DNA of 64,000 bases, taken from positions 1 to 64,000 of the forward strand of contig CT868036.1 in the NCBI GenBank assembly GCA_000165425.1, read 5' to 3'. How positions within the stretch are numbered: the first letter of the stretch is position 1; each line of letters opens with the position of its first letter. Origin of the DNA: Paramecium tetraurelia (taxonomy: Eukaryota). The notes below the pieces were generated by a model. It was not told the origin of the DNA, did no database searches, and worked only from the letters and a program-made list of their open reading frames with translations. Below are positions 1,350 to 44,943 of the stretch, in pieces. A program made the translations under genes and the position numbers.

Positions 1350-4300
1350 ATGAATTATTTAGAAGTTAGAAAGGCAAATTCTAAATTAATTGATAAACCG
1401 TTTCAAGAATAGAATAATAGAAACTTGATTATAACAGAATAGATCTAATCGGTAACAAATATAACCTTATTCGAAATTTCAAATTATTAGATCGATTATC
1501 ATAATTTGGTTTCTTCTATTCAATTAAGAGGTGGTGGATGCTTGAAATCAACACCAACTCGTTCTGATTTAATTTCTAATTTGCAATAAATTGATAATAG
1601 ATTTCTAACCTAATTACCAACATTTGCAAACGTAATTTCTGAAAAATCTTTAAGTTTTTAAGATAAATTGTATCAGGATGAAGTACTTCTTGCATTTTAG
1701 TGGTTTTAAAACAATAAAGAATAATTTTATATTCTTTGTAATAATTAATCTGAAAATACAAAAAACTATTAATTGATCGAAAAAATAACAGAATAATTAA
1801 TGAGATCATTAACAATTTATATCAAGTTGTCAGGCTTTCTTTTTAAATAGTTATTATAAATTTGTAATGACTTCTGGAGAATAATATTTTCTCATTAATT
1901 ACAGAATGAAGATAGATACATGTAGGATGAAATTTAAAAGAATTTTTTAGAAATTATTGAAGAGGTTGACTCTCAAATGTAAGTAGAAGCAGTTAATATT
2001 TGGATGAACGGAGCTAAGTTTGAGCTTTAATTGATAAAAATTTGCGTATCTCATTGTAGGACTAATTCCCAAAAAGGATAGGAATTAGTTATATCTATTG
2101 TTAGTGGACTATTTTCATCGATATCTTAACTAAGACCTAGTGAAGAGCTAATAGATTCGTTAATTGAAGGAGGAAAATTTCTGCTCTTGAATTTCTACCA
2201 TAAGTGAATATAAAATCCTCTTCAGGTTTATGAAATTTATTTTTATTTCGAAAATCATAAATGGTCTATTGTAATTCAATTGAAATTGGGTTATTCTATT
2301 CAGAATATTATGAAACAGATTCAAGATGGATATTCAAAATACATTAAACAATCTAAGGATTGGAGAATTCATTATTTTTGGGTCAATTTGATATCAGATA
2401 TTATGTGTTATAGACCAATTTTTCTTAAGACTGAAATGAAATAATTATCATAATCATAAACTGTTGATGAAGAAACCTGGAATTAATTAGTAATCAAGTT
2501 GCCTTATAATAAGTTTGCTGGTAAACTCAAATTATTTTCTAACAATAATTTTACATTGAAAAAGTATGCAACTTTAAAATTGTTTTAAGAGTACTTGATT
2601 CAAAAAAATTAGAGTGATATTTAACTTTTGCCCAATTATATTAATTTTAATTTCAATGCTCAAGAAAGGAAAAAATTTTAAGATGAAGATCTTTTTATTC
2701 AATCATTAACAAATCAATCGAACTTAGAAATTTTAAAAGCTTTAATGAAATAATTAAGGTATTAAAATGACCAAGCAACCAGTAATTTTGTTATTGCAAA
2801 AGAAAAAGTGAGTCAACATGATACATATTTGAGAGGTGAAAAGCATATTGAATTCAAAATCTTTAGCTAAGAACTACAATTCTTGATGAAACAAATTAAA
2901 TAATCAAGTCTGCTATAATTATATTTAATTAACGAGATAAATTTACTTGTGAATAAGGAACTTTAAAATAATTTAATAATATAAACGATATTCTAAGAAT
3001 AGTTTAAAATATTGGGATAAGACTCAAAAAAAATAAAGGAATAAACTTTAAAAGACATACAAGAAATTGAAAATAAATATGCATCTGAATTTTTGGGTAA
3101 TTTATAGAATGTTTCTTAATTTTGGTCATAAATTGTTTAATATACAACTTTCTCACATATAGAATTAATTGAGGGGAATATTGAATTGGAAAAATCTCTT
3201 TAAATATAATTGGATTAGAATATTAAATATTTTACAAATATAAATAACTACCTAGATAAATTTCAATTATAGATCTCTAATGTTAAAACTAAATTCTTAA
3301 AGATTTTAGAATAGTAGAAACACAAGGATTTAATGAAAGAATCGATAAGTTAAAGACAATTACTTGATATTATGATAAAGTTGTTTAATCCTAAATTGAC
3401 ATTAAAATTGATAAATGAAAGCATTTAATATTATTAAAAATTGTTACAAGAGGAAATTTAAATTGAAAATGTGAAAGATGTTCGGAAAATTCTTATAGTC
3501 ATTCAATCAAACATTAATATTTATAAGGGATTATAAATGCTTTTTAAATAGCACCACAAGAAATTATTATCAATATAAACATAATTATAAGGGGCGTTTG
3601 AAAAAATAAGTGTTGCTCACATTAAAACTTAATAAAATTGTGAAATTGATATTAAATACCATAGAACAGCATTCATCCTGGAGATGATGGATTAACTGCA
3701 GCTTTTGTTTCAAAAATACTAAAATTAAGAACNNNNNNNNNNNNNNNNNNNNNNNNNNNNNNNNNNNNNNNNNNNNNNNNNNNNNNNNNNNNNNNNNNNN
3801 NNNNNNNNNNNNNNNNNNNNNNNNNNNNNNNNNNNNNNNNNNNNNNNNNNNNNNNNNNNNNNNNNNNNNNNNNNNNNNNNNNNNNNNNNNNNNNNNNNNN
3901 NNNNNNNNNNNNNNNNNNNNNNNNNNNNNNNNNNNNNNNNNNNNNNNNNNNNNNNNNNNNNNNNNNNNNNNNNNNNNNNNNNNNNNNNNNNNNNNNNNNN
4001 NNNNNNNNNNNNNNNNNNNNNNNNNNNNNNNNNNNNNNNNNNNNNNNNNNNNNNNNNNNNNNNNNNNNNNNNNNNNNNNNNNNNNNNNNNNNNNNNNNNN
4101 NNNNNNNNNNNNNNNNNNNNNNNNNNNNNNNNNNNNNNNNNNNNNNNNNNNNNNNNNNNNNNNNNNNNNNNNNNNNNNNNNNNNNNNNNNNNNNNNNNNN
4201 NNNNNNNNNNNNNNNNNNNNNNNNNNNNNNNNNNNNNNNNNNNNNNNNNNNNNNNNNNNNNNNNNNNNNNNNNNNNNNNNNNNNNNNNNNNNNNNNNNNN

Positions 4301-7300
4301 NNNNNNNNNNNNNNNNNNNNNNNNNNNNNNNNNNNNNNNNNNNNNNNNNNNNNNNNNNNNNNNNNNNNNNNNNNNNNNNNNNNNNNNNNNNNNNNNNNNN
4401 NNNNNNNNNNNNNNNNNNNNNNNNNNNNNNNNNNNNNNNNNNNNNNNNNNNNNNNNNNNNNNNNNNNNNNNNNNNNNNNNNNNNNNNNNNNNNNNNNNNN
4501 NNNNNNNNNNNNNNNNNNNNNNNNNNNNNNNNNNNNNNNNNNNNNNNNNNNNNNNNNNNNNNNNNNNNNNNNNNNNNNNNNNNNNNNNNNNNNNNNNNNN
4601 NNNNNNNNNNNNNNNNNNNNNNNNNNNNNNNNNNNNNNNNNNNNNNNNNNNNNNNNNNNNNNNNNNNNNNNNNNNNNNNNNNNNNNNNNCCTTTGAGACA
4701 ATCCGTTCTAATCAATAAAATACTAAAATTAAGAACTTACAGAAGAATAATTAACAGACTTCAACATAATATCAAATCAAATTAGTAAAGAAATTAATAA
4801 TATAAAGTTCATGGATTGGCCAGATCAAATCAAAACTCATCATATTTTACTACTATCTGAAATTAAGCTGCAATTAGAACTCCTTAGTTTGGTACAGCAA
4901 GACAGAAATATTATCTATATAGAAATTTCAAAACTATTGGATGGATATCTTAAAGAAATAAATTCAGAAGATAAACCAAATGAGCACTAGCCCTTAACTA
5001 AGGGTATAAAGCAATCGTCTACCAATGATGAAATTTTGATATTGAAATTAAAAGATTTTTTTGATTGTGAAGGGCCTTTGAATATTTTAGAGAAGTTGAT
5101 TACCAAATCAAAAAAGATTAAAAGCATATTTAGGTAAAACCATTTAAATGCAGCTTCTCAAAATTTATAAACCAACTTCGATTTATTGAATAAATTAAAG
5201 GATGCCTAAACATTAAGTCTCAAACAAGCTATTACTGATTTACTATAACAAACCTTAGTATTTTGTTAAATGATTAATACACATGAGTAAATTATTTTTG
5301 ATTAAGGGTTTATTGAAAAGAGCTAAAATTAACCTAATTTAGATTAAATTTCTGCATTATTACATATATTAAACTTTGATACTCTGAATTTTTAAAATTA
5401 AAGGATGGAACATGGAGTAGAAAAAGTTGATATAATATAGAATATGATTGCAGAATTGGAAAAAGATATGAAAATAATTTAAGAAGAAAATATTTTTGAT
5501 ACACTTTCAGATTAATCCTATAAAGTTCGAGAATTAGTTGTATTCAATTTAATTAAAATACAAACAATCATTTAAGAACAACCAATATAAGAGTTTTGTG
5601 AAAATTTATTAAAATAAATCTGGATAATTGAAAAGCATTCAAGTGTTAGAAGCCTTCTAAAAAATGAAGAAATGATAAAAATGCAGAAGAAACTATTTTC
5701 TCAAGATTTATAAAATTTCTCACTTAAAATAAAAAAAGAGATGCAAACAAAATTTAAATAGATTGAGCAACTTGAAACTTAAGTTCTTCTAAGCGGCAAC
5801 TAGGATGAAATTAAGAAATCACTATAACAGTAGTATGATGAATTTGAGATATATTTGGATAACATAACAGATATGTCATAAAGATTAGATATTAGTTTAG
5901 TATTTTTAAGGGAAATTAGTAAGGATTTGAAAAATATTAAATCATCCATAGATTCAATACTAATAAGTGTAAAAGGAGTTGAGGATGATATAAGAAGATT
6001 AAGAGGTAAAAATTTTATGGAATTGCTAACCATTCGAAAGTAGAAAGTTTTATACTAAAAGCTAGAAAATGAGTAAGATTAAATTCATATTGAAATTAAA
6101 ACTTAAGAATATGACCCAATTTCTGGAAATAAAAAAAAAAACAAGGGTGGAGAATTTGAAAGCTTTTTGATGAAATCGTAATGTGATAATTATGATGGGG
6201 AAGTTAATGAATTTTTGTGGAGTGGTTATGAAAAACTAAAAGATGTAATGCTAATAAAAGGAAAAGCAGGATCAGGAAAAAGTAGAGCTTCACGGAACAT
6301 TGAAGAATTTATTTGGATTTGCGATTCAATTTCACCAAATTGGATTCCAATTTATGCGTCACTTCCTTAATTAAAAGATCCTAATCACAATTTAATTGAA
6401 CAGGCTCTTGAGTCTGAAAATTACAACTTTGACGGTATTTAAATCAGAGAATTTAAAGATGCAGTCATAAATGGAAAATTAAAGATTGTTATTATACTTG
6501 AAAGCTATGATGAGATGAAATATGATTATATTGGAACAAATCTATATAATAGAAATCGAGTAGCATATGATCTAAACCTTTAAGCCTAAGACTTAAAAGT
6601 AAAGTTTATAATTACTACAAGAGAAGAAATACTAAACACTATAGGATATTAAACATGGTTTTATGGTTCGAGTTTATAAAATCTTAAAGAAGTAGAAATA
6701 CTACCTTTTCGCTAGGAACAGAGTTCATAGTATCTTAACATATATGCTGAAATCAGTATTAAAAGAACAATTAAAAGGTTTTATGAGTTTCTCAAACAAT
6801 TAAAGGGTTAAAACTTTTAATTAGAGGAGTTTAAGTTAATTTGGAGTCAAATAGAAAATACAATTAATTCTATTATATTATAAAGAAGAAAAACTGATAT
6901 GCTGTTTTTAAACTCAGATATTGAAAGGATAATAAAAGCAATATAAAATGTTCAGTTTTTTAGTTTTATCTAATCGAATTAAATGTTATCTCTAAAAAAA
7001 GAACTTCTTTAATTATGGGGAGAATAAAAATTTTAATCAGTAGTTAAAAATGTAAATATCACACATCTATTAAGTACACCATTTATGATGGAAATAATTG
7101 TATATGTGTTGCCTAAAATGTCTTCACTTTTCTCTAAAGCCAACAGAATTAGAGAATTACTGAAGAAAAACTATATGATTTTGAAAAAGGAAGCTAACAA
7201 TTCACAGGTACAGCTGGAAATTTATTAACAATACAGTAACAATAGTATTAACTTTGAGGCAGAAAATTATAGAAAAAGTAAAACGATGAAAGAAATTGAA

Positions 7301-10300
7301 ATAACTTAATAGTTTACTTAAATTTTAGAAGATTTAGATAATTCAAACTTTTTTGAATCATTTTCAATAGCCGATTCTTTAGAATGTGTAAACAATACTA
7401 CAATTTTTTCTAATAAAACATTCAACGTCAGATTTGATGCCAATTATGTTGTTTCAGCTTTCAAGCTCTAATAGTATACTGCATTTGATTTTTATGAAAT
7501 ATTTGTGAATTTCTATCACAATTAACAACTTTAAAAGCTGAAAGATTTGGGTATAAGTATTAAAGAAGAAAGTATGCTTTAAGATTTAAATGATTTTTCA
7601 ACATTTTTGGCAATCGATATGTCCTTGAGGTAGCTTACTTAGGTAAATTATAAATAAAAACGGAAATTATATATTTCTTCAGTTAAGGAAGAGAGGAAGG
7701 TTGAAGTTTCTTGGGATGATTCATATTTTGATGAAAATTAAGACGATTTTGAGTATAAATCACTCTTGCGAAAGTGTATGTTGATAAATTCCAAACGCAG
7801 TTTATATGCATTTAATCATAAATCTATCTAAGAATTTTTCGTAGCCAACTATATCATAAATTTAATAGAGATAATCTTTTCCCAAGGAAATGGAGAAGTG
7901 AATTAAAATTTCTTAAATCAATGCAGTTTTAACAAAAATGAATTTAATTTATCATTAGAGCATTATTCTGGGACATTAGAATTGTTAAAACCAAAGATAA
8001 TATAGATTGAAGATATAAAGAATAAATTAATTTAGATAACACAACTATCAAGGAAAAATTCTTAAAATAATCTTAAAAGATCAGCTTCAAATTCAATCTA
8101 TATCCTCGGTTCTTTAAGAGAGCATTTTGAAAAAATTGATCTAAGTGATTTATGTATAGAATATACTAAATTAGATGGAATGAGTTTTTATTAATGCAAT
8201 TTTAACAACTCTTAATTTCATAATGTATCTATAGATTCTTGTAATTTTAATTGCTCAACAATAGAAAATGCTACTTGGACAAATTTGATTTGCAAAGAAA
8301 AACCATCAATAAAAGCTCACACTAGTTCGATTAAATATGTGACTTTTAGTGATAATGGAAAGTTTTTAATTTCAGGGAGTGAAACCGGAGTTATTATAAA
8401 ATAGGAGTTGTTAGCTGATTCAGAACCTAAAAAAACGATACTACCAAATAATGATAATGATAAATTAAGAACATTATCTACTGGAAAAAATTTGCTTGCT
8501 TGCCTTTCTAATAAGTCTTTATATATATATAGTTTAAGTGATTTGAAAGAATTACAATCTTTTCCAGCAACAAGTATTTATTTTAAAGATGTTGACATCA
8601 TTAGATTTTCACCAAATGATAAATATTTAGCTGTAACATTAAGAAAAGGTATAACACTCTCTGTTTTTAGTAGAAAATCTACTTCAATAATAAGCATAGC
8701 AATTCAAATTTGTATCACAACAGAATTAAGATTACATTAATAGAATAGCAATTTCTCCAAACTAATAGCTTTTAGCCACAGGTGGTTATAAAGTTAAAAT
8801 TTGGAATTCTACTAACATTTCAGATGTTTAATAAATCTTAGAACTTCCAGGAGAAAAAATTAAAATAAATTCAATTGCATTTTCAATGGATAATTAGGTA
8901 TTAGCTGCAGCAATAGGCAAGAAGTTAGAATTTTGGAATATTTAGAATCTTAATCAAGTTTTTTTAAAATATAGGTTTGACTCACTAAATGAAATAGTTT
9001 AAATATGCTTATTCAAAAAATGGATAGCTATTTGCTTCTAAATCAGAAAAGGTATTAAAAATATATGAGGTTCAAAAGTTGCCTGATCAATAAGACTTTT
9101 TTAGAATAAATTCTGAACTTCCAGTGGATTTAATTGAAATTTCTTCAGATTGTTAAATTTTGGCTATGAGCCATATATAAATTTCCAAAAATGATAGTCC
9201 TAAGATTACAATATGGGACATTAAAAACCTGCATAATGTGAAGATGATCTCAGTTCTTAAAGAACAATCTGAAAATATTTCAGCCTTAAAAATCAGAAAT
9301 GATAATTTAGTTTTAGGTTCCGGTAGCTTAGATCATTCAATTTGTCTTTGGGATTTACTAAAACTAGAATTAATTGTGAAGTTAACATCTCATAAAGTTA
9401 AAATTTTAGATCTTGCATTTTCATCGGATATTTAGCAAATGGCATCCTGCAGTGTAGATGAAACAATTATTTTTTGGGATACCACAAATATTGGTAAACC
9501 ATAAATTAAAATGACTTAATAATAACAACTTGGAGTTAAAAAGGTTCTTTATTGTCCAAATAGGTCACTTTTAGTGTCAATATAGGGGGAAACTTATAAT
9601 GAAATCAAATTATGGAATTCTGCAGAATTTAAGCTTATTTCAACAAACACGAATTAAGCATAGCTTATAGACATAAATTTTAGTGAGGATGGAGAGAATA
9701 TGTTATCTTTGAATTAGAATACAATTCTTACAATTTGGAAAATAGATGACTAAGGTTTTGAAATTTAAAAATAAATCAAGATTGATGGAGAAAAATACGT
9801 ATCTCAAGCATATTTTTTAAATAGTTAAAGTATTATTGCTCGTTTCGGATCGTCCGTATATCATTTATATATAAAAGATTAAGAAATTTAAAAAAAACAT
9901 AAATATGGCTTTTCAAATACTCCTAATAGTATTTAAGTTTCATAAAATAAAAAAATCATTGTAATGAAAGATGATGGTGATCCTAATAAAATTGAGATAA
10001 TTGTTATTGAAAATCATAACAGATACAATAATGTAGATTTCTAGGATAAAATTAAAGATTTCGAATTTTCTAATGATGCTTCACTTTTAGCGGTTGCAAC
10101 AGATAAGGGAGCATTTATTAAAGATATTATAAAAAATTAAATATTGTAGAATTTTTAATAAAATCAGTGTTGTCAGTTGATTTGTTTTATTGGGAAAGAA
10201 TAATTAGCAATCATGTTAGAGTAATAATTAGTTTTATATGATATATAAGATATTAATTCATCAAAAACAATATCTATAATTTAATTATATGATAAACCTT

Positions 10301-12783
10301 AGAAAATGATTTTCTTAGAGCAAAGATAGGAGATTTGTATTTATAGTAAGAGCAGCTTTGTACTGATAAGCTTATTAGAATTATAATAAATTAAATTAAT
10401 ATCATTTGAAGAGGATGCATAATCAAGTGATGTAATTTTCGATTCGGAATAATTATTTATGGGTATTGGAATAAAATAACACATTTAATTTATCTCACTT
10501 TCAAATGCTATTAAAATCGAAAAAATAATCAAATTATATGATACCAATGATGATAATCCTCACACTTATACAAACTTTTCTCAAGACTGTAATATTTTCT
10601 CAATATTAACCCCTAAGTTATTGTATTTATAATTGGATATTAGTTCTAATTAGATTTTAAAAAAAGTTAGTTTTAAATCTTATCGCAATCCCTGCGCATT
10701 AAATAATTAAGAAACTTTGATAATTGTCAATGACATTGGAATATAAAAGAAGAATTTATTCCTAATTGACCTAGAAACCTAAAAAACAGTGACTTGTTTT
10801 GAAGAAGTAGATTAAAGAAAATTCAGATGTCTAACAATTGTTTTTTCTTAAGATGGATAAAATTTTGTTACCAGTTATTCAAACTTAATCATTAAATTTT
10901 GGGATACTAAATCTTGCAAATTGCTCTCTACTTTTAAAACAGATACTAATTCAATCTAAATCCTTACGATTTCAATAAAAGGAATATTAGCTTAAACAAG
11001 TGATGATATCATAAAGTTATGGGATTTAAATGCCTTAAAACAATAATAATAAGAAATGGATGGTCATACTTCTTCAGTAAATGAGATCTGTATTTCTTCA
11101 GATGGCTTATAAATGGTGACAGGATCTGAAGAAGAAATAATAAGATGGGATTTTATTGAACTAAAACAACTTGATATATTAATTAAGGGTAAAAGTCTTC
11201 CATCTAAATTTTGTTTCTCGCCCAATAGTCAATATTTTATTGCTCTAGGAGAATAATCAATTCATATCTGGAAATTTATTACAAAATATATTATTGAATT
11301 TCACAAAATATATTGGTGTGACTCTATAAAAGAACAAAAATTGGGTGTTGGTTAAAACCATGTCATCTACAAGAATGGTGAATCCAAAATATTCATAATG
11401 AACTTAGAATAAATAAGTAAATAGATTTAAATATAATTTTAATCTGATTTAAAGAATCAAACAAGATCAATTATTCTTTCAAAAAATTTGCTGATAAAAA
11501 CCAATCCATTGGAGATAATTCATATAAACAATAAATTAGAGTTAAAAAATGAATAAATGGTTGGAATATCAGCCAGTTAAATAACAAAAATTGCATATTG
11601 TGCTAATTCATCGAGATTTGCTTTTGAAAATGAAGATCAATCAATTATTATATGGTCAATTGAAAAAAAATAACAACTGGGGATATTAAATTCTAATGAA
11701 AATAAAAAAACTTAGCTTGTAACTATGATATTTTCTGGAAATAGTAAGATACTGTTCTCATATCATGATGATAAAAAAATAAGATTATGGAATATAACTG
11801 ATAAATTTGAGTTGATTGAGATATAAGATCTGAAGAACGATAAGTACTTGGTATATTCTCTAAATTTGCATTTGCATTCTAGTAAAGATGAGGAATATAT
11901 ATTAATATGGGGTGAAACTATTAATTGGTCGGATTTTGAGGTAGGTGCAATATTTTTTTAGATTGGCACTATTGTAAAATAATTAGGTTAAGCTTCTGTT
12001 GATTGCAAAAAAAAATTTTCAGCGGCATTTAATGTATCAAATAATGTAATTGCTCTTTAAACTGAATCAATACTTCAACTATATGATATATCTTAGGAAG
12101 AAATCATAGTCATCGCAACTTTCGAGGATAATCCACTTAATGATTTATTGTGTAAATCTAATCTAATATTTTCATCTGATGGGAAAATTCTTTTATCATT
12201 AGGCACTGATTTCACAGTAAGATTGTGGGATATTTCTGATTAAAGCTCAATAAAAGTCAAGGTTAATATGAAAAAACCAATATAAGCTGTGGCTATCCAG
12301 TTTATAAATTCAGAAACAATCAGGATTCTTAGTGAATCGGGTATTATAATTGATTAAAATATTTCAGAATATTTAGAAATAGGTGTTATCAAAGATAAAG
12401 ATTAGTTTGATTTTAGAGCTGCAAAATAATAATTAGGTATATCCAAATATAGTGGAAAACTTAATAATAGAACTTTGGAGATTCTTGATTCTCAAACAAG
12501 CTAATTATAATATACTTTGAATAAATTTAGCTCCAAAATAAATGCAATTTAATTTACTCCATCCTAAGAATAATTCATTCTAGGAATGGAGGATGGATCA
12601 ATATTGTTCTATAAGATCAATTAGTAGACAATATAATTTTATGGCATACCTGCTTGCTATCATATATTTGCCAAAAATCCTCTTTTATCAGCTTAAAATT
12701 GCAATATTAGACAATCCACTTTTAAGACAATTGAAAATGAAAATTTTGAAAAAGTATTATGCGAGAAAGGAGCCAAAAAATGA
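1350..12783 (+). CDS. Giant NLR-like STAND protein: LRGG-GC leader, long helical/coiled-coil region, NACHT-type NTPase, pentapeptide repeats, many WD40 repeats. Possibly a pseudogene or carrying assembly errors.
   Basis: Table-6 translation from ATG 1350 (MNYLEVRK...QLRGGGCLKST). Walker A DVMLIKGKAGSGKS ~6242-6283; Walker B KIVIILESYDEM ~6482-6517; NACHT-associated AFNHKSIQEFF ~7808-7840; pentapeptide-like FYQCNFNNSQFHNVSIDSCNFNCS ~8185-8260; WD40s such as LGSGSLDHSICLWD and MDGHTSSVNEICISSDG; TGA at 12781. Disrupted by an in-frame TGA at 2205, an N-gap at 3733-4689, a likely 22-nt intron at 8649-8670 and an unexplained frame change near 9000. Confidence 0.85.
3733..4689. other. Assembly gap (run of N)
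   Basis: 957 N characters. Both flanks contain the same 20-mer, aaaatactaaaattaagaac. Confidence 0.99.
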
Positions 12784-16697: not shown

Positions 16698-19153
16698 ATG
16701 AAAATATTAATTACTCTGATAGTGACATAATCTATATCAACTATCATAGGTTTTACGGAATTTAAGGAACCATAAGAAGTGATAGCATTGGCCTTGGAAC
16801 TTTTTGGATTGGCAATGTTGTTGCTTTTAAGCAGGATGAAATATTCTGAGTTGATTTAGAGAATACTGCTTATATGCTTGGCAACGATAATATTTGTATT
16901 AATGCCGAATTCTCAGTTTAAATTTTATAGTGGAGTTTATCATATAGTGCTTCGCCATTCACAACAAAAGCAATTAAATAGGGGTTTACTTTTAGAATGG
17001 TTGGGTAAAAACTGAATAAATAATGATTTAGTCTTACTTCTGGTCATACTAATATTTGGAACATCTCTGGAGATAGAACAAATTTGTAGAAGTGTGTTTG
17101 CAGGAATAGCAATAATGTTAATGCAATGTTTTAAGTACCAAGATTAACTTCAAAAAGAGGCAAATAAACAATAAATAATGATACAATCTAAAATAAACTA
17201 TACAATGGCCAACAATGATGGGTCGAACCCAAGGAACATTGGAGAGCGGATAGTGGATCCAAAAGTGACTTCGTTATTTTTGGATGAGAATTACAATGTT
17301 TTAGACTTTTAGAGATCGAGTGCTGTTTATAAATTGACAGATGGGGATGTGTAAAATCTACTGTAGGAATTGCACATAAATAAAATTGACTAAAAATCAA
17401 AGTAGTTATTGCCTTGGAAATGCAATTAAATTTCATTAAAATATTTCTTAGACTCAGTTAAAAATAATGCCATCCCAATGGTTATTTAAGTTATTGACTA
17501 CACTCATCCTAAGTTAGAGAATCATATAATTAAAATCATTTATTAGAATGATTTCGAAATCCAATTTTATGATGTCGAAGAAATAGATAAATATAAAAAG
17601 AGAAATTATGTTTATGCAATTTTAAAATAATTATTTAATACTATGTCACATGAATTTGGAACATCTCTGAATTATTTACTGGCTTTATCCTAAGTAGCAA
17701 TAGATAAATATAATGACGTAGAGTTATAATCTTACTTTTAACCTATTAAAGCTACTGGACTAATAATGTACCATTTCGTGTTAGACATGATTGATTTTAA
17801 TGCTCTATTGGGAAAGAAGCTAGAATTATATTTTGAAAAAATAGATGTAAGATATTTCTGATAATATTAAAGATTGTTGAAATTCTCTATGAAATTAAAA
17901 GTATTTTTTCTCATTCTTTAGAATAAAAAGGATTAACAATAAACTTTGATGTATTTCTTAATGAAAAAACAATCTTTACTGATAGAAGAAGACTAAAATA
18001 AATCTTAATAACCTTGATTTCCAATGCTCAAAAATTTACTTTCAAAGGTGGTATTCGATTGGTAGTTAAATCAGTTGAAAAGTATGTCCAATTCGAAGTT
18101 ATCGATACAGGTATTGGACTCTCAACATCTGAATTGGAAATTCTAACAGATGTACTTAAAACTGATTACAAAAACGAATAATAAATATCTAAAAATACAG
18201 CTGGATTTGGTTTGGGAAGTTATCTATGTAATAAAATTGCAATGAGTCTTTCAAATCTAAAGTACGAAGATGGAGGAGGAATTAGATATTCAAACAATTA
18301 AGGTGAAATTGGTACCATGGTAACATTCAAGATCCTTAATGAATAATTGAATTATAATTTTGTTTCTTCATAAGATAATTCGAGCGGCATAATAAAAATA
18401 GGGAAAAATGTGATCGTCGATTTAAAACAATCATAAATTGAATTAAGTTTAAGTGGACTGAAAAAACCATTGACTAAGAGATTTAGTACTGTAATGGTAC
18501 CAAAAGTAAAAAGCTTTCATGATGATTAACATAGAGAGCATTCTTATTTCAAATAACCTACAAAAGACTGTTTTTAAGGAATGTAAATGTAGTACACAAA
18601 AATAGATTCAGATAGTGTAAACGAAGAAACTAATGAAGAGGATTATCAAAAAAGATTATAAATTCAAAATCTTAAACTTCGTTATTATCCTAGTGATATA
18701 CTTCGTGAACTAAGATAACAATCAGTTGGAATAAGTGAACATTATGTTCTTGATTGCAAGTGTAAGACCATTCTAATTGTTGATGATGAAATGATTAATA
18801 TTTTGGGATTGTAATTGATGTTGAAGTCTTTGTTTTTTGAGGCTGATCATGCCTTTAATGGATTGGAAGCAATCAAAATGTTAGAATAAGGTATTTTTAA
18901 ATTCTATTCTAAAGCTCATTGCATGTATAGTATAATTTTTATGGATATCAATATGCCAATTATGGATGGTTATGTGACAACAAAAGCAATTTTAAATAAA
19001 TACAAAGCTGGTTCACCTAAAATCATTGCCTGTACTGCATTTACTGATAGTCAAACAAGATAAGGATGTTATGAAGTGGGAATGTCTCATTTCATTAACA
19101 AGCCTGTAGATAAAACTGAACTTCAAAAATTGCTGTGCTATCTAATAAATTGA
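16698..19153 (+). CDS. Membrane-anchored hybrid sensor histidine kinase (TM segments, HisKA, HATPase_c, receiver)
   Basis: H-box MSHEFGTSLN at 17643; N-box QILNNLISNAQKFT; G1 EVIDTGIG; G2 GFGLG; receiver ILIVDDE...IIFMDINMPIMDG...IIACTA...FINKPV; hydrophobic N-terminus; several tiny introns. The start codon is approximate. Confidence 0.88.
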
Positions 19154-36112: not shown

Positions 36113-39100
36113 ATGATAGTTCAACAATCAATACTACACAATGAGGACGAGAAGGAGCAAATTAGAAGGGACTTTGATGTTTTCAGTATTGAAGAAGTAC
36201 GTTCAAGTGTGTATACTAGTTAAACAATGAATTGAGAGTTCAAAACAATCAGGAATTGTTGAGAAAAGTTCACGATTTGTTTTTCGATGTCAAGGCAGAG
36301 GACCAAGACTTCTACTATGAAGAATTGCAATCGCAAATGCAAGACGAATACGAAGAGATGTTCTCAAATTACAAGACCATTTCCAATTCCTATTTGAAAC
36401 TCATTCCTCAAAGCGACCTCCAATTGGCCCTGAATTACACAGACCAGTATCTATCCAACCTTAATTAGATACCCATTCTTAGGAATCAGAAAACAACTGT
36501 TACTTTGTTAAAAGAAAATATCCCTAATCGCAAATAAGATTGTTACCAACACGATATTTGAAATCATAACAATCTTCATCATCATATTCAATTCGGTTAT
36601 GCTCGCCATGGATGATCCCACAACTGAAGAACAAACAGACTTTGCCAATTTGATGGATCAAATATTTTTAATCTATTATACAATTGAAGCAATCTTAAAA
36701 ATCATCGCACAAGTAACTTAACTCATTAAACTAGGGCTTAATATGGCCAAAGAAAGCCTATCTGAGAGAAACCTGGAACATCCTGGATTTCTCAGTCATC
36801 ATCACTGCCTACTTGCCCTACTTTGTCTCATCTAACTCATTAAATCTCAATTCTTTACGATCCTTTCGAGTGTTAAGGCCACTCAGAACCATATCCTCAA
36901 TTAAATCTCTGAGGATGATTCTGCTGGCTTTGTTCGCGTCCCTGGCACAACTGAGAGATGCCGCGATAGTATTAATTTTCTTTTATACTATCTTTGCCAT
37001 TGCTGGAGTGCAACTGTTCTCAGGCTATCTGAAGCGTCGTTGTTTCAGTGACATAGGAATCACACTGATGACTTCCATTGAAATAGATGCCTTTTGTTCA
37101 GCTGACTCAGATTGTCCAACTGATTATCTTTGTGGAAAATAAACCAGCAATCCTCAGAACGACCTTATCAATTTCGACACCTTTGGTTGGGCATTTCTGT
37201 AAGTCTTTGTTATCACCACACTTGAAGGATGGGCTTAAATCTAAGAAGCAGTAATTCTCACATTCTCTCAATTTGTTATCTTCTACTTCTTACTAGTGGT
37301 AATAGTGGGAGCCTTCTTCCTTGTGAATCTAACCTTGGCTGTTATCAAGTTAAACTTCAAACCTGAAAAGATTGAAGAAGAACTCAAATTAATCCAAGAA
37401 GACATCGAATTCTACGACTACTGGGAATTGAGAAGACTTGGCCTCTATAAAGCGAAAAGGTATAAGGTTGACACAACCAACTATGGAGTCACTCCATCAA
37501 AATTTACCAATGCCTATTAAATTCGTAGAAGGTCCAAAAAAATGAACACTGTCAACTTCAATAACCTTGAACACAACCACAGAGTTGCAAGTCGCAAGAA
37601 TATTACGTTTAAAGCCATCCAATAAGCCAAATATTACAGCAAACCAATCAATTTGAAAGACAAAGTTAAACTCCAAGGAATTTATGGGATGGGCAATATT
37701 GATAAAGATCAATTGGCTACCAATTCCAAATTTGATCCACTATTAAAATAAACTGACAATTACTCTATCTCCTCCAAAACCAATGAAGAAAAAAATAAAT
37801 CATCTGAAAATCTACCTCCGAGTGAAACCAATTAAGAAAAATAGGAAAAACTATTAAGCAAATCCAAAAATTAAACCAATAGCATTCAAAGCAAAAATGG
37901 AGATTATAGCAAAAACGGAGATTATAGCAAAAACGGAGATTAGGATGAAAATCAAAAACTTGAGGTTCCCAATCAAAGAAAACGAAAGTCTACTTCTCAA
38001 TAATTTTAAAACTTTGTCAGATCTCCTTCCAAATACTCGAAGACTGTCAGAATTGTCAATAAACAAGAGAGTGTGGATCTACTCAGCAATACAGAATTCA
38101 GCAGCATTAATCTAAGTGAACTCTCTGAAGATTAATTAGATACTCGACTTCAAGAGATTGCCGTTGATTTAGATTAGATTAGACTGGAAGGGACTTCGCA
38201 GAATTTGAAGGAAAATGAATTCAAGGAAATGAAAACATTGAGAAAAACAGATGCTAAGAAAATGAAGGATTTCCTTTAAAGTGAACAATACGACAATTAA
38301 TTTGATGAGAAGAATCTCAAACTCAAATCAAAATTGCATAACATATAATTCTATCCTATCATTAAGTTGGAGCACGAATAATATACTAGCACTGAAGAAG
38401 TCCTTGAGACTAAATACATTAGAGAATTATAATTACAAAAATAAGATTAGGAACATAAATTCAAGACTATGAGTGTCAAAATATAATATTGTTTCAAAAA
38501 TTCTAAATAAATCCTATTTAGTTAATAATCTCAAAAATCTATTGCTAAGAAGTTACAAACTACTCAAAATTTGAAGCAATCGAAGTCAAAGAAATTCAAA
38601 ATATTTCATGGCCTTAGAAGAGTCAAACCCATATTAGATGATGTACATCCGATTGAAGAGTTTCTAATGATGTCCGATTTAGTCGATTCTGAAACTCGTA
38701 GAGAGGATGATTAAGAAATTATTGATGTACAAACTTCACAAAATCCTCTAATGGACACTTTTGATCATTCGAAAAGGAAAAAGAAGAACCAACTCAATCA
38801 AAAGCAAGAACTTACTTATTAAGAATTACAATCCCATTTTAATGATAGTAATGATTGCATTGTAGATCTAAATAAAAATAATACAGTAATTAAAGAAATA
38901 GAGCAAAGCAACAAGAACATCTTTTTATCATATCATGAAAGAGAGGCATAAAGAGCAGTGTTTTATCATGATTATTACGAAATAAGGAAGAAGGATACTT
39001 TATCAAATGGAATTATTTAAGCAATATCCTCAATTGAAGATGTCTTGCTGGTGTCAGATTACACATTTTTTGATTAGAAGTTTGCAACCTAAATGAATTC

Positions 39101-42100
39101 GGTAATGAAGGCCATGAATTATGATGACAATGCATATTTTAAATGGATCAAAGGGTTTACTGGTTTATTATTAGTATGTTAAAGGAATTTATACCATTTA
39201 GTGTAATCAAGCTATTTTGAGGGGATGATGAATTTAGCAGTGGCATTAAACACTCTGATTTTGGGTTTGGATGGATTGATCTCAGAAGAAAGCAATGCAC
39301 TTCTGATCTAATTCAATTTTACATTCACCATTCTATTCACTATTGAATTGGGTTTGAAGTTGATGGCACTGGGGGCAATAAATTATATGAAAGATACCAT
39401 GAATATCTTTGATGCATTGATAGTGTGTTTGAGTTTGGTGGAGCTTTTCATTTTGGGAGGATCTAATGGAAAGTCTTCACTATCGGCATTCAGAGCTGTT
39501 AGAATATTTCGAGCATTTAGAGTTTTAAGGGTTACAAAACTGATGAAGAGCTTGCAATTCATGGGTTTCTTAATAAAAGTACTCTCAAACTCTTTTCAAT
39601 CTTTAATGTATATACTGTTATTGATGATTATATTCATCTTTATATTTACTCTATTGGGAATGTCCTTTTTTGGAGGATAATTAACTTACACTCCCAGTAG
39701 AGAGAATTTTGATAACTTGCAGAGTTCATTTCTTGTGGTGTTCTAAGTATTGACACTAGAAAATTGGAATTCTCTGTTGTATGAACTACTGTTATAGCCA
39801 TTAAGTCCTGTGATTACAATGATATATCTGGTGTTGTGGATTATGATTGGCAATTACGTCTTCTTGAATCTGTTTCTAGCTATTCTGCTGGAAAATTTCG
39901 AGGAAGAGTATAAGGTAGACAAGACAGGATTGGAATCCGATCTTCAAATGAGCAAAAATCATTCGACTACTTAAGCATTGCCAATTTCTACATTACAACA
40001 TTCAGGAGTCAATATTAACAACACCTAAAACTAGCTAATCAATCAGCCAATTTTGAGGAGAAGATCATAAGTGAAGATAACCTTTCACCATGATGATGCA
40101 ATATAGAAGAAGAAAGAGCCTGCCTTTATCTATTTTAGTGAATAAGGGATCTGCCAAAGTTCGTTATTTATTTTTAGTTAATAAAATTAATTCAGAAAGA
40201 TTGCATATCGAATAGTCAAGGACACCAAGTTTGAAGGGTTCATTCTTACCTTGATTTTTCTGACCAGCATGAAATTAGTTTTGGATACTTATATTCCTTC
40301 CTCAGGAGATTTGAAATTTTATTCATTGTAATTTGATATAGGATTCGCTATTTTATTTGGTTTGGAATGCATTCTGAAGATAGTGGCATTTGGATTTGCC
40401 TAAGAAGAAGCTTCTTATTTGAGAGAGTCTTGGAATGTTTTAGACTTCTTCATTGTCATTGCCTCTTTTGTAGATGTCAGTGTGTCTAGTATCAATTTAA
40501 GCTTTGTAAAGATCCTGAGATTGTTAAGAACTTTAAGACCACTTCGATTCATCACTCATAATAAGTCAATGAAAATTTTAGTAAGTGCTTTGTTATAGTC
40601 AATCAATGGGATCTTCAATGTGGGTATAGTCATAATCTTATCTTGGTTGATGTTTGCCATTTTGGGAGTGAGTTTGATGAAGAACAAACTTCATTATTGC
40701 AATTTAAATGACAACCAGACATACTATTATGGCAAGGATGATTGCATCAATAAATACCAAGGAGTATGGGATAACAGAGATATCAACTTTGATAATGTGC
40801 TTTAAGGCATGTTAACATTGTTCGTATTGTCGACTTTGGAAGGGTGGCCAGATTACATGTACTATTTTATTGATGCTGATGAATCTGGGCCAATTTTTGA
40901 TGCCCAATTGCAATTCTCTTGGTATTTTGTGATTTTTATTCTATTTGGAGCTATGCTTTTGATTAATTTATTTATTGGTGTCATTTTGGTCAATTACCAT
41001 TTAGCAGAAGAGGCATCAAGAGATTAGAATCTAACTTAGACTCAAAGTGATTGGCTTGATCTGTAGAAGTTAATCATACATTCAAATCCCAATATGGCTA
41101 TGTTTTTCCCTCCTGACAATAGTTTCAGAGCTCTCTTTTTCAAGCTGATCAAAAATAAGTATTTTGACCCCTTCATTATGACCATCATAGTTTTCAATAT
41201 CATCACTATGGGCTTGGCTAAGGAGGAGGCTTCAAAGCAATACGACTAAATTTTGAGTTATTTGAATATGTCATTCACATTCGTATTTATCCTGGAGGCA
41301 ATATTGAAATTAATAGCTTTGGGAATTATCGGGTATATGAGGAATAGTTGGAATTAGTTTGATTTTTTTGTGGTTTGCGCATCTATTTTGGATTTGGTCC
41401 TAGATTTTTCAGGGAATTCATTTGTGACATTCTTGAAAGTGGGCCCTCAAATTGCAAGAGTGTTTAGAGTGCTAAGAGTGACGAGATTGTTTAGATTGGT
41501 TAAATAATTTTAGGGATTACAAAAATTAATTGAAACAGCCCTGTACTCACTTCCTGCTATGCTTAATGTTACAGCTTTGTTGTTTCTGGTGTTTTTTATA
41601 TTTTCGATTTTGGGTGTCTTTTTATTTCAAGACATTAGAGAGGGTTAGGTGATTAGTGAAAGTAATAATTTCTAAGATTTTCATCATTCCTTTGAGATTT
41701 TATTTTAATGTTCAAGTGGAGAAGATTGGCATAAAATAATGTTTGATACTATGAAAGGAGGATAAGAGTATAATTGCGTATTCTTCGTCTTATTCATTAT
41801 TATCTAATAATATATTATGTTGAACCTATTTATCTTGATTATTTTAGATCAATATGAAGTAAATTACTTTAATTCAGATAATCCTCTGAATAAGTTTTAA
41901 GAGTTTGAAAATATCTTTGTTGAGAGTTGGTCAAAATTTGCGTATCAGGACAAAGGAATGAAAATGCATGGAACATCCTTGGTTAATTTGATGTTTGAAA
42001 TGGAATAGCCATTAGGTTATGAACTCAATAAAAGATTACAGGAAGACATCTAAGAATGGAAGAATATCAATCCTGATAACAAGGATGCCACTTAATTAGA

Positions 42101-42788
42101 TAAATTCAAATAGCAACTCCTTGTTGTTGCCAAAAAGAATGTTGCCACCTAAATAATGATGATGAACATCTATTCTGACTCTGAAGGCTATGTCAGATAT
42201 CATCAAGTCCTATTTGCAGTTCTTAAGAATTACCTATAAAAGAAATTGAATATCAACCTAACAGAAATAGGAGCGAAGAAAATACAATAAAAGGAGGATG
42301 AGACAAGACAAAAAATTACTAAGTTTGATGCTTCCAAATAAGAAAATCTAGTTAATCCTATTGTGCAATATCTATTTGTACTCATGGCTTTCAAGGCTAT
42401 GAAGAGATACAAATGTAAAAAGAAATTACAACAATAGAAATTGGCATAGTTATCCATCGTAGGTCAAGAGTATTTCAGCGATGAGAATAGTTCCAATACT
42501 TCCTATGATGGCAATGTGGAGATTCTGTCACGCAAAACTAGAGGGAGCATCATAAGAGTTGAACCAGAATATGGGCAGATTAAATACCTATCTGTTCCTA
42601 ATACTATGATCTATCAGAATAATTTAGCTTTAAATCAACAAGTAGTGAGTGAAAGTGACAATGATTAGAGTAGCGACAATTAATCATCAGATTAAGACGC
42701 CAACAAATTAAAAAGATTATAAACAATTTCACAAACCATAGAAGGCTTGAAAAGGAGAAAGAGTTAAAAGAAAACTTATAAAAAGTGA
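36113..42788 (+). CDS. Four-domain voltage-gated Ca2+ channel alpha-1 subunit (EEEE filter)
   Basis: Four 6TM repeats with S4 segments LRSFRVLRPLRT, AFRAVRIFRAFRVLRVTK, LRLLRTLRPLRF and ARVFRVLRVTRLFRL. Pore loops TTLEGW (E at 37224), LTLENW (39759), STLEGW (40839), SSGEDW (41721). TGA at 42786. Confidence 0.95.
37890..37943 (+). repeat. 18-nt coding tandem repeat x3 (SKNGDY-SKNGDY-SKNGDQ) in the channel I-II linker
   Basis: agcaaaaatggagattat agcaaaaacggagattat agcaaaaacggagattag. Confidence 0.9.
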
Positions 42789-42857: not shown

Positions 42858-44943
42858 ATGTCTGTATTTTTATTGACCCTACTTAGACTTACTTCCCAAG
42901 AACCTTTGACAACTTCATAAATCAAAGTTTGCGATTCAAACAAAAATGCTGATTGTTCTGAAAACATGCTTATCTCATTGACAATTGAAAATTCATTCTC
43001 AACTTCAACAGAATAAATCTAAATCAATTCAACAATACTCAACAATCAAACTGTTTAATTGTCAACTCCATTTACACTTACAATTACAAAAACACCTGTC
43101 TATGCTTATTATCCATTAAAATATTTCCAAAATTACAATAGTCAACCTTATGAACTTTAAATCCCATCAGCAGTTAACCCTTGTGATGATAATTGGACTT
43201 CTAATTCGCCAACATGTGGATTCTAATATTCAAGCACTAATAAGGTTTAAGACAGCTAAGGCTTCTGTTGTTCTTGTGGATCCTCGGAATACAGTGGTTA
43301 AAATGATTAATCAGTCAGGATTAATATTTGCAAAAATGCTTCGGTTGCTACTATGGCTTTTTGTCTTAGATATTCTCCCCTTTGGTATAGGTAAACTTTT
43401 GTAATTTATTATTCTAAGCTCTTACAATATATCCAAATTTGTAATCCATTATAACATTACTATTTCTATTAAGTACTCCAATGATGAAGTTGAATAATAC
43501 ACACTAGGGAGTGAAGTAAAAGAAGTTAAAGGTGAGTCTTCTATCGCTAAAATTATTTCAGATTATATTCCATCAAACTAGCCACCATCCTTAGAGTCCT
43601 TTATGCTAATGAAACCTAGTTCACCTACCAGTCATAATAGGGTATAAGCTGGATCAGCAGCCTATATGTTTGTACCTAAAGAATTTTTAGGGTAAGGAGA
43701 ATGTAACAAAATTGGAGTTTCATATACTTCATTTAAAAATGAAAGAAATAGTTGCAAAAAGTTAATAAGGTCTTGCTTATAAAATTAATTAGAGGATCTA
43801 TATCAGAATGATATTGCTTAACTTAATAACAATTCTTAACCTACCTATTTGATATAAAAATATGGGGAATTTAAGTAAATCAACATCAATAATGATTAAT
43901 ACCTTTAATTTAGCATTGATCAATAAATGTTCACGACTATAACATTGGAAATCAATACAACTGGTCGCATTTCTTATATTGGGAATAAATAAGAAAGTGT
44001 GAAAGGATAAATAGATTTAGTTGAAATTCATAATTTTTCGATTGCATCAGGATCTGGTTTATTGTATGCTTAAATTACCAATACTGGAGGTAGTTTAAGT
44101 GAATTTAAGAGCTTTTTTAATTGTTCTACGAATACTATCACAATAAATTCTACAGAACTTGAGCCATTGTAGAGTATAATAATTTAATAAGACATAAATG
44201 TTTCAATTGATATCAAAAAATCAACTAGCTGTAATTTTAGTTTATTAAGTAATGAAGGAGCTCTTTTGGATTGGAAAATTGTCTATCTTAACTAATTTGA
44301 TAATAATACAAATCAATCGAATAATTACAATTAAACAATTACTAGTGAAGGAAAAGTGTGTGAAATAAAGTGTTCTCAATTCATTGACATTTCTTGTTAT
44401 TTGTAGAATAATTGTGAAAAGGATGCAATCACTTTTTTTACTGTTTTAGGTGGAATATTATTAACTTTTTCTTTTTGTTGCCTTTATGTAGGATAAAAAA
44501 GAAATTCATGTTGTTTTTGGTCTAAAAATAAAAGAATGTCAATTATTCCACCTTTAGAAAGTGTATTGTATCAATAAAATAGCTAAATGAAGAGAAGAAT
44601 TGGAGGATCAGAGTCATCTTATGAATAGATTTCTTAGTTATAAATTTCAATATTAAGTGCCAATCTAAATAAGATAATGTACTTAAACTTGGCGTTGGGC
44701 ACAGATCCTATTTCTAATCACCTTCAATCAGATGCATCATTTGAAGTGTTGGCAACTTATTAGAATAAGGATTTAGTAGAGTTGTCAATAAAAAGGAGAA
44801 GCCCTTTTGTAAGAATATTTAAAGAGATATACGGTTTGTAAGATGCAGATAGGAATGTAAAGAAGTACTTGGAAGGGAAGAGGGAGTCGATTTATTTATT
44901 CAGCAATTTACTAACAGAATTTCCACTCTTTAGCATTTATTGA
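42858..44943 (+). CDS. HAP2: HAP2/GCS1 class II gamete membrane fusogen
   Basis: Signal peptide MSVFLLTLLRLTS; TITKTPVYAYYPLKY; PTCG...DSQGFCCSC; AFCLRYSPLWY; HAP2-GCS1 motif GECNKIGVSYTSFQNE...C...SCLQNQLEDLY; single TM (FFTVLGGILLTFSFCCLY); intron ~43391-43418; TGA at 44941. Confidence 0.95.

Follow-up and report, generated by a model that had tools for sequence, protein, structure and literature searches.

In several described systems, a lipidation signal is uncovered by proteolysis. The residues exposed in this way in AvrPphB, a type III effector of Pseudomonas syringae, are Gly-Cys, and BID, like huntingtin, is myristoylated after caspase cleavage. An excerpt from PMC8150971 describes AvrPphB as being myristoylated and palmitoylated once proteolysis exposes its internal Gly, upon which it goes to the plasma membrane, and the part of PMC9880554 that concerns huntingtin describes post-translational N-myristoylation of the caspase-cleaved protein. 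Here we report a related arrangement at the beginning of a 64,000-nucleotide stretch of Paramecium tetraurelia DNA (contig CT868036.1 of assembly GCA_000165425.1, positions 1 to 64,000; this whole stretch is called the window below). Near the N-terminus of a giant NLR-like protein encoded from position 1350, an LRGG sequence resembling the ubiquitin tail is followed directly by a consensus for N-myristoylation with an adjacent palmitoylatable Cys. Like the AvrPphB family, as far as the excerpt describes it, this protein has a putative N-terminal pro-peptide, proposed to be cleaved, ahead of an internal Gly-Cys. However, the bacterial AvrPphB is itself a papain-like protease and undergoes self-cleavage at a non-LRGG site, whereas the Paramecium protein is a eukaryotic NLR-like giant with a ubiquitin-tail motif, in which no protease domain was found. 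As in BID and huntingtin (the latter according to the same partial source), an endoprotease would unmask a cryptic internal Gly for N-myristoyltransferase (NMT). Those two proteins are cut after Asp by caspases in apoptosis, whereas the Paramecium site is LRGG/G (a slash marks a known or proposed cut) and is hard-wired at the N-terminus of a whole gene family.

Cleavage after LRGG is familiar from the precursors and fusions of ubiquitin and ubiquitin-like (UBL) proteins (polyubiquitin, ubiquitin-ribosomal protein, NEDD8, and ISG15), which deubiquitinases (DUBs) and UBL proteases cut at this motif, and the precursors of NEDD8 and ISG15 have a Gly directly after it. The cut proposed in Paramecium is of the same kind, but these precursors consist of a folded beta-grasp of ~76 residues, whereas the Paramecium leader has 2 to ~150 residues, is unrelated in sequence, and is modelled as disordered. 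The coronavirus papain-like protease (PLpro), which is also a DUB, cuts LxGG sites in a polyprotein. The rubella papain-like protease (RubPro) is described in an excerpt from PMC9271420 as cutting the linear site LSRGG/G and the peptide RLRGG-AMC and as acting as a DUB. On this partial description, the viral sites and the Paramecium motif are alike in being short linear motifs that end in Gly-Gly and have Gly after the cut point. Unlike RubPro and PLpro, which are viral enzymes acting on viral polyproteins, the substrate here would be a host protein, and no enzyme of this kind is known to be associated with Paramecium.

Among NLR-type proteins, the tripwires of NLRP1 and CARD8, as presented in an excerpt from PMC7857732, are similar in that a protease site, here a candidate one, lies in a disordered N-terminal region. 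However, the NLRP1 sites evolve fast, differ by species, and act via N-degron degradation and FIIND autoproteolysis, whereas the Paramecium site is invariant and its predicted outcome is lipidation. With Pfam, FIIND (ZU5-UPA) was found neither in the open reading frames (ORFs) of the window nor in the relatives labelled P0009, P0010, P0011, P0070, and P0074. The acylated plant coiled-coil NLRs (e.g., RPS5) and the SH4 region of Src-family proteins have a dual-acylation signal of the Gly-Cys type at the N-terminus. These start with Met-Gly and are acylated co-translationally, whereas a Met-Gly start occurs in 0 of 63 members of the Paramecium family. In the literature searched, there was no description of the motif, of an LRGG-masked myristoylation or acylation signal, or of a Paramecium NLR family bearing the motif, and no paper joined Paramecium and LRGG. 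Proteolysis-exposed myristoylation, LRGG cleavage, and acylated NLRs are known already, and the new element is their combination as a hard-wired, family-wide latch.

The LRGG motif and its family

The window is very AT-rich, and long ORFs appear only under the ciliate code. When positions 1350-2207 were translated with table 6 (the ciliate code), the protein read Q58-L-R-G-G62 followed by G63-C-L-K-S-T68 at 1521-1553, exactly as an earlier note on this DNA had claimed, and GCLKST fits the N-myristoylation pattern. The 285-residue product from the ATG at 1350 is identical, letter for letter, to an annotated protein in the public collections, which marks the window as macronuclear DNA of the Paramecium aurelia complex, probably P. 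tetraurelia. From the upstream in-frame stop at ~1284 to LRGG, this ATG is the sole one, so a leader of 62 residues, including the motif, is the only ATG-started reading; the next stretch, from 1350 to residue 151, contains no other in-frame ATG. In the six-frame translation of the entire window, [LIVM]RGG occurs once. The features at the N-terminus are as follows.

1350..1523, + strand: variable leader, M1-Q58, from the translation; AlphaFold2 confidence (predicted local distance difference test, pLDDT) ~30 over residues 1-77
1524..1535, + strand: L59-R60-G61-G62, a ubiquitin-tail-like motif, proposed P4-P1 of a cleavage site; invariant in 55/55 motif-bearing sequences
1536..1553, + strand: G63-C64-L65-K66-S67-T68, an N-myristoylation consensus with an adjacent palmitoylatable Cys, from family conservation

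A first HMMER scan with residues 1-130 as the query found seven related clusters, and at the N-termini of these relatives, LRGG-G-[CS] formed an island of identity within leaders that could not be aligned. Among the first homologue matches, the relatives of the window protein were all from Paramecium. For the family search, the NACHT region of a full-length relative was used as the query, so that the N-terminus played no role in picking the matches. The resulting set contained 63 long NACHT-pentapeptide-WD40 proteins of 1,920-6,111 residues, from P. tetraurelia, P. octaurelia, P. primaurelia, P. pentaurelia, P. sonneborni, and P. bursaria, together with one transcript of another eukaryote (P0074). 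The pattern [LIVMF][RK]GG was present within the first 250 residues of 52 of the 63 members, where it was always LRGG followed by Gly, and it was the only [LIVMF]RGG in each of these 52 proteins (2315-4352 residues). A 53rd member, P0073 of P. bursaria, has LRGGG at residue 449 (MIIQS-LRGG/GGICS), directly after a Met at about residue 444. Its motif lies behind a part resembling aromatic amino acid lyases (residues 183-354), and the sequence suggests that this model consists of two genes merged by annotation. From the composition of the family, LRGGG would be expected 0.009 times by chance in 221,936 residues, compared with the 52 occurrences observed in the first 250 residues of the 63 relatives and one beyond. 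Seven of the remaining 10 members are N-terminally truncated gene models that start 222-1312 residues into their relatives, and P0067 and P0074 have unrelated N-termini with no LRGG motif. The motif thus marks the NACHT-WD40 family, as the earlier note had anticipated, in that 52-53 of the 63 long members carry LRGG-G.

The motif was analyzed in 55 sequences, both paralogues and orthologues, consisting of the 52 long proteins, the window protein, P0003, and P0006. The residues L, R, G, and G and the following G (position +1) are each present in 55/55. Position +2 is Cys in 47 sequences, Ser in 3, Phe in 3, Gly in 1, and Ile in 1; at +3, Gly (26) and Cys (10) are frequent; +5 is Ser in 33 and Thr in 12 (S/T in 45/55); and +6 is Lys in 34/55. 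The family consensus is LRGG/GCGxSK, and typical motifs read LRGG/GCGSSKSKKN and LRGG/GCGQSKQKGK; in the P. octaurelia orthologue P0026 (3,474 residues), which starts with MNYL, the motif is SSIQLRGG/GCFGST. We take the consensus to resemble the Src-type SH4 dual-acylation signal. Consistent with this sequence type, a Cys lies within +2 to +5 in 53/55 and a K/R within +6 to +9 in 47/55, as in SH4-like dual-acylated anchors.

NMT substrates prefer Ser or Thr at the fifth position. With the Gly after LRGG as residue 1, the PROSITE-type myristoylation pattern G-{EDRKHPFYW}-x(2)-[STAGCN]-{P} fits 49/55 motif-bearing sequences, compared with 17.9% of 5,326 internal Gly residues in the same proteins. 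Of these internal Gly residues, 12.4% have S/T at +5, and only 1.3% have Cys at +2. When the register was set after the Arg, S/T was found at +5 in 0/55, compared with 45/55 in the register after LRGG. Judged by sequence, the register after LRGG is the only one in which the following residues look like those of an NMT substrate, in agreement with the earlier claim that an acylation consensus begins at the Gly after LRGG.

P0074, a EukProt transcript from a GC-richer eukaryote, is the sole relative from outside Paramecium. It has an OTU-like domain just before the NACHT domain (residues 845-918, 28.3 bits), in which the position of the catalytic Cys appears by eye to be Ser, so that the domain may be inactive. 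Its only GGG is at residue 126 (126-140), within HLLGG/GNLLSCPCS, where LxGG-G is combined with the acylation pattern and a Cys.

Drift and predicted disorder of the leader

The length of the leader varies from 2 to ~150 residues and is mostly 40-65. These lengths rest on gene models, and the three leaders longer than this may be over-extended. The shortest leader has 2 residues (MI-LRGG, P0069), and those of five other members have 4-10. Upstream of LRGG there is no conserved position (P5-P12), the best being Ile at P6 in 19/55, and the leaders of paralogues cannot be aligned except at M1 and LRGG. For 300 random pairs among 43 members, the median pairwise identity was 0.17 in the last 30 residues of the leader and 0.32 in residues +25 to +125. 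The motif is therefore conserved while the leader around it varies, as the earlier note had asked of its proposal. An AlphaFold2 model based on an 11-sequence alignment had no strands in residues 1-77 (pLDDT ~30), and a confident all-helical domain started at residue 80.

That the leader would not otherwise be a ubiquitin fold had also been suggested in the earlier note, and this was borne out. With E values up to 10 allowed, Pfam returned no ubiquitin family for nine leaders and one unrelated match (E 0.064); a leader profile searched against the Protein Data Bank (PDB) gave three unrelated matches (E 2.5-5.5) and no ubiquitin; and a phmmer search of the PDB with the N-terminus of P0003 gave two unrelated matches and no ubiquitin. 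The C-terminal LRGG tail of ubiquitin is present in 55/55, but the folded beta-grasp of about 70 or more residues is not, since the model is disordered and six members have leaders of 2-10 residues. We therefore rejected the leader as a ubiquitin homologue on the absence of Pfam and PDB matches, the pLDDT of ~30, and the existence of leaders of 2-5 residues. The tail of the window leader has some likeness to the last strands of ubiquitin, by eye only, and this is moot given the leaders of 2-5 residues elsewhere. A bacteriocin-type double-glycine leader (C39 peptidase), a type that goes with a dedicated C39 ABC transporter, was also rejected, as there is no conserved leader consensus upstream of GG. 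On sequence and structure prediction, the leader is not of the ubiquitin family, and LRGG, its tail, appears to be the only part that is selected, serving as a linear motif within a segment predicted to be disordered; this follows from the lack of ubiquitin matches, the predicted disorder, and the leaders of 2-5 residues.

Proposed cleavage followed by lipidation, and alternative readings

The reading that explains most of these observations is an obligatory endoproteolytic cut followed by acylation, because the two elements are in register and conserved, the N-terminus is predicted to be disordered, the leader drifts, and no member bypasses the cut with a Met-Gly start. We give about an even chance to the proposal that an LRGG-specific peptidase removes the leader, so that Gly can be N-myristoylated and Cys palmitoylated. 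The cut, after G62, would be made by a cysteine peptidase that recognises LRGG, a tail of the ubiquitin/NEDD8 type, as a short linear motif. This peptidase may be DUB-like, clan-CE/Ulp-like, or PLpro-like, and would most likely be the cell's own, acting in trans. The free leader would be discarded, the new N-terminal Gly63 would be N-myristoylated post-translationally by NMT, and the Cys next to it would be S-palmitoylated, so that the double acylation would anchor the NLR-like protein to a membrane. Both acylations and the cut itself are inferred from sequence, as are the type of protease, any immune role, and whether the step is constitutive maturation or regulated activation.

Drift of the leader (2 to ~150 residues, identity 0.17) is as would be expected of a discarded peptide. 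That none of the 63 members starts with Met-Gly suggests that the simpler co-translational route was never adopted and that LRGG itself is under selection, and the predicted disorder of residues 1-77 would leave the site open to a protease. We are inclined to favour a host enzyme that acts in maturation or in a shared activation step over a pathogen tripwire, because the same invariant motif on every paralogue, whatever its WD40 sensor, fits a family-wide step better.

Several points weigh against cleavage and acylation. The family sequences are related, so that occurrences of the motif cannot be counted as independent. P0010 has the N-terminal domain without the motif, the short model P0008 has IRGC-GCCGTK where LRGG is expected (a one-residue departure), and 6/55 sequences fail the myristoylation pattern, three with Phe at +2 and three with Gln, Val, or Leu at +5. 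The window copy itself has an in-frame TGA. Canonical DUBs draw most of their binding energy from the globule of ubiquitin; because the leader has no ubiquitin fold and some leaders have only 2-5 residues, a peptidase that reads the linear motif must be assumed. Pfam found no protease domain in the Paramecium family proteins examined. The OTU part of P0074 was considered as a cis-acting protease counterpart and was rejected, as it gave no alignment with the pre-NACHT region of Paramecium.

An unlikely alternative is that the motif is never cut and that LRGGGC is an internal linear motif, such as an S-palmitoylated Gly-rich hinge or a pseudo-substrate or docking peptide that lies in the cleft with which a DUB or some other reader binds the ubiquitin tail. 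The Cys present within +2 to +5 in 53/55 would be enough for palmitoylation without cleavage, ordinary DUBs may not cut a leader that has no ubiquitin fold, and the OTU-like domain in the non-Paramecium relative hints at a link to a DUB-type domain that need not be catalytic. However, an uncut motif leaves unexplained why an invariant P1' Gly, S/T at +5, and K at +6 stand in the exact NMT register, and why the sequence upstream varies freely over 2 to ~150 residues.

We consider a little less probable than an uncut motif that the sequence is a family-wide tripwire or activation latch, with the NLR-like protein soluble and inert until a ubiquitin-tail-specific peptidase clips it, after which the Gly-Cys would be lipidated and the protein would move to the membrane for defence or death. 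In that case, the peptidase would be either a DUB/PLpro-type enzyme of a pathogen or symbiont, to which escape by mutation away from LRGG is closed, or a protease of the host that becomes active when the NLR assembles. Slightly more doubtful again is the narrower proposal in which the intact protein is the resting state and a peptidase of a pathogen or symbiont (viral PLpro-like, or a bacterial effector of the CE or OTU type) cuts LRGG and unmasks the acylation signal. Such a peptidase would have to recognise LRGG, since its targets are host ubiquitin or NEDD8. The NLR-like architecture is in keeping with a tripwire, and the lack of a Met-Gly bypass of LRGG fits a step that must stay conditional. 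Viral papain-like proteases that are also DUBs cut linear xRGG/G sites (excerpt from PMC9271420), and NLRP1 is activated through cleavage by viral proteases (excerpt from PMC7857732). Nevertheless, an invariant motif on essentially every paralogue in six species, whatever the WD40 sensor, would make the sensors redundant, and Paramecium would need a way to hold back those of its own enzymes that are specific for LRGG. We also know of no such pathogen protease for Paramecium.

Self-processing like that of Hedgehog proteins or inteins, in which an N-to-S acyl shift at the Gly-Cys bond would yield a thioester, is very improbable. The Gly-Cys (47/55) or Gly-Ser (3/55) after LRGG is superficially like the junctions of these proteins, but 5/55 sequences carry Phe, Gly, or Ile there, with the Cys shifted, and AlphaFold2 places a disordered linker and an all-helical domain downstream rather than a Hint fold. 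Near the N-terminus there was no Pfam match to Hint or intein families, and the sole weak one is in P0070 of P. bursaria, where Intein_splicing matches residues 2072-2743, across the WD40 region, with 33.1 bits against a cut-off of 35.8; this match is probably spurious. Least probable of all is an artefact, in which the motif would belong to a misannotated 5' sequence or a chance match and the true start would be downstream: fragmented or fused gene models are common in the family and the window copy is interrupted, but protein-level conservation of the motif extends over 55 sequences of six species, against 0.009 occurrences expected by chance, and the window has no in-frame ATG between the one at 1350 and residue 151 and a frame continuous with the conserved downstream domain.

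The gene around the motif and its meaning

Mapping of homologues by tblastn indicated a single giant gene from 1350 to 12783 on the + strand. The helical N-terminal region matched at 1590-3731 in frame 3 (residues 58-739 of P0010), the matches continued in frame 2 at 4718-8635, and the WD40 part lay in frames 2, 3, and 1. The features downstream of the motif are listed here.

1554..1586, + strand: linker, about residues 69-79, of low confidence and weakly conserved (alignment; pLDDT <50 up to residue 77)
1587..3732, + strand: first part of the N-terminal domain, predicted to be all-helical (alpha-solenoid-like) (AlphaFold2 helices 83-282; tblastn)
2205..2207, + strand: in-frame TGA, codon 286, which interrupts the gene in this assembly (translation)
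3733..4689, no strand: run of 957 N (assembly gap) inside the gene (sequence)
4718..6241, + strand: helical region ahead of NACHT (tblastn frame 2; no Pfam family beyond the NACHT and P-loop matches)
6242..6742, + strand: NACHT-type P-loop NTPase domain (Pfam PF05729, residues 478-644 of the ORF from 4811)
8162..8284, + strand: pentapeptide-repeat stretch (Pfam PF13599 and PF00805, both below their cut-offs in the window)
8306..12783, + strand: WD40 beta-propellers up to the stop codon (Pfam WD40 families, E down to 3.6e-55)
8649-8670, + strand: 22-nt intron, GTA..TAG, which accounts for the switch from frame 2 to frame 3 in the WD40 part

A second frame change in the WD40 part, from frame 3 to frame 1, lies near 8958-8997. 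In the window, the NACHT match scored 17.3 bits, below the cut-off of 26.7, and a Walker A sequence (GKAGSGKS) is present; the scores in relatives were 26.6 bits (P0011) and 45.3 bits (P0070), so that NACHT is recognised at the level of the family. The pentapeptide stretch is likewise found in P0009, P0011, P0070, and P0074, and the WD40 propellers provide the C-terminal repeat sensor region of STAND/NLR proteins. By sequence, the window protein is a STAND/NLR-like giant with a helical N-terminal region, a weakly matching NACHT domain, a pentapeptide stretch, and WD40 propellers, and its gene belongs to a Paramecium-wide family encoding proteins of ~3,000-4,300 residues with this same order of regions. 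In nearly all full-length members (P0009-P0072), the Walker A sequence lies at residues 1,238-1,347 in proteins of 2,300-4,350 residues. Because this position is narrow while the protein length varies, the region N-terminal to NACHT is, on these sequences, under a length constraint.

The helical N-terminal domain was modelled with pLDDT 80-90 over residues 80-200. A Pfam scan of this domain found no family, a Foldseek search of the PDB with the post-motif domain was empty at E <= 0.001, nothing usable came from the ESM Atlas, and a wide VIA-align search found only generic helical repeats, with a best Z of 10.1, in the range seen for unrelated helical proteins. In a comparison with hhalign, the helical pre-NACHT region was homologous to the helical region ahead of the OTU domain in P0074.

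The public annotation ends the 285-residue protein at the TGA at 2205-2207. A contig of DNA run X1, which carries the same species label, has A at 2206 and thus reads TAA (Gln) in place of TGA, and the homologue P0004 has Gln at this position; the TGA is therefore read as a mistake of the assembly or else as a nonsense allele specific to a strain. Three oligo-dT RNA-seq runs that carry the same species label gave 0 reads at this locus and bear on neither its expression nor the proposed processing. A short intron was rejected as the source of the TGA, because the GT..AG candidates of 22 and 100 nt are not multiples of 3 and X1 reads TAA. One X1 contig contains 27 extra bases behind 2591 (2591-2593), inside the coding region and with TA at both bounds, and these resemble an internal eliminated sequence of Paramecium, either from germline DNA or as a retained copy. 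Because the P0010 and P0004 matches on either side of the 957-N run overlap by ~5 residues, the run appears to hide essentially no protein, and its size appears to be an artefact.

In the rest of the window, the named neighbours are a hybrid histidine kinase with a receiver domain (17837-19153), a four-domain voltage-gated cation channel (36654-42788), a HAP2/GCS1 gamete fusogen (42982-44943), and a cyclic-nucleotide-binding K+ channel (57443-59089). These four are ordinary ciliate genes and none is a peptidase, and no linked protease was found among the neighbour genes scanned in the window.

The LRGG motif provides a landmark for annotators who seek the true 5' ends of these giant genes, many of whose models are fragmented or fused. 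If the cut and the acylation are real, the family would represent a natural case in which the ubiquitin-tail motif, in the absence of ubiquitin, serves all members as the latch of a pro-peptide that controls post-translational myristoylation; a peptidase specific for LRGG and able to read it as a linear motif would then have to exist. This would join DUB specificity, proteolysis-made NMT substrates, and NLR-type STAND proteins in protists, and, if the tripwire or latch proposal were true, it would constitute a cleavage-to-lipidation switch of a kind undescribed for any NLR. The prediction is sharp, can be tested cheaply in a tractable ciliate, and covers dozens of genes per genome. The conservation of the motif suggests that membrane attachment of the proteins of this family requires prior cleavage.

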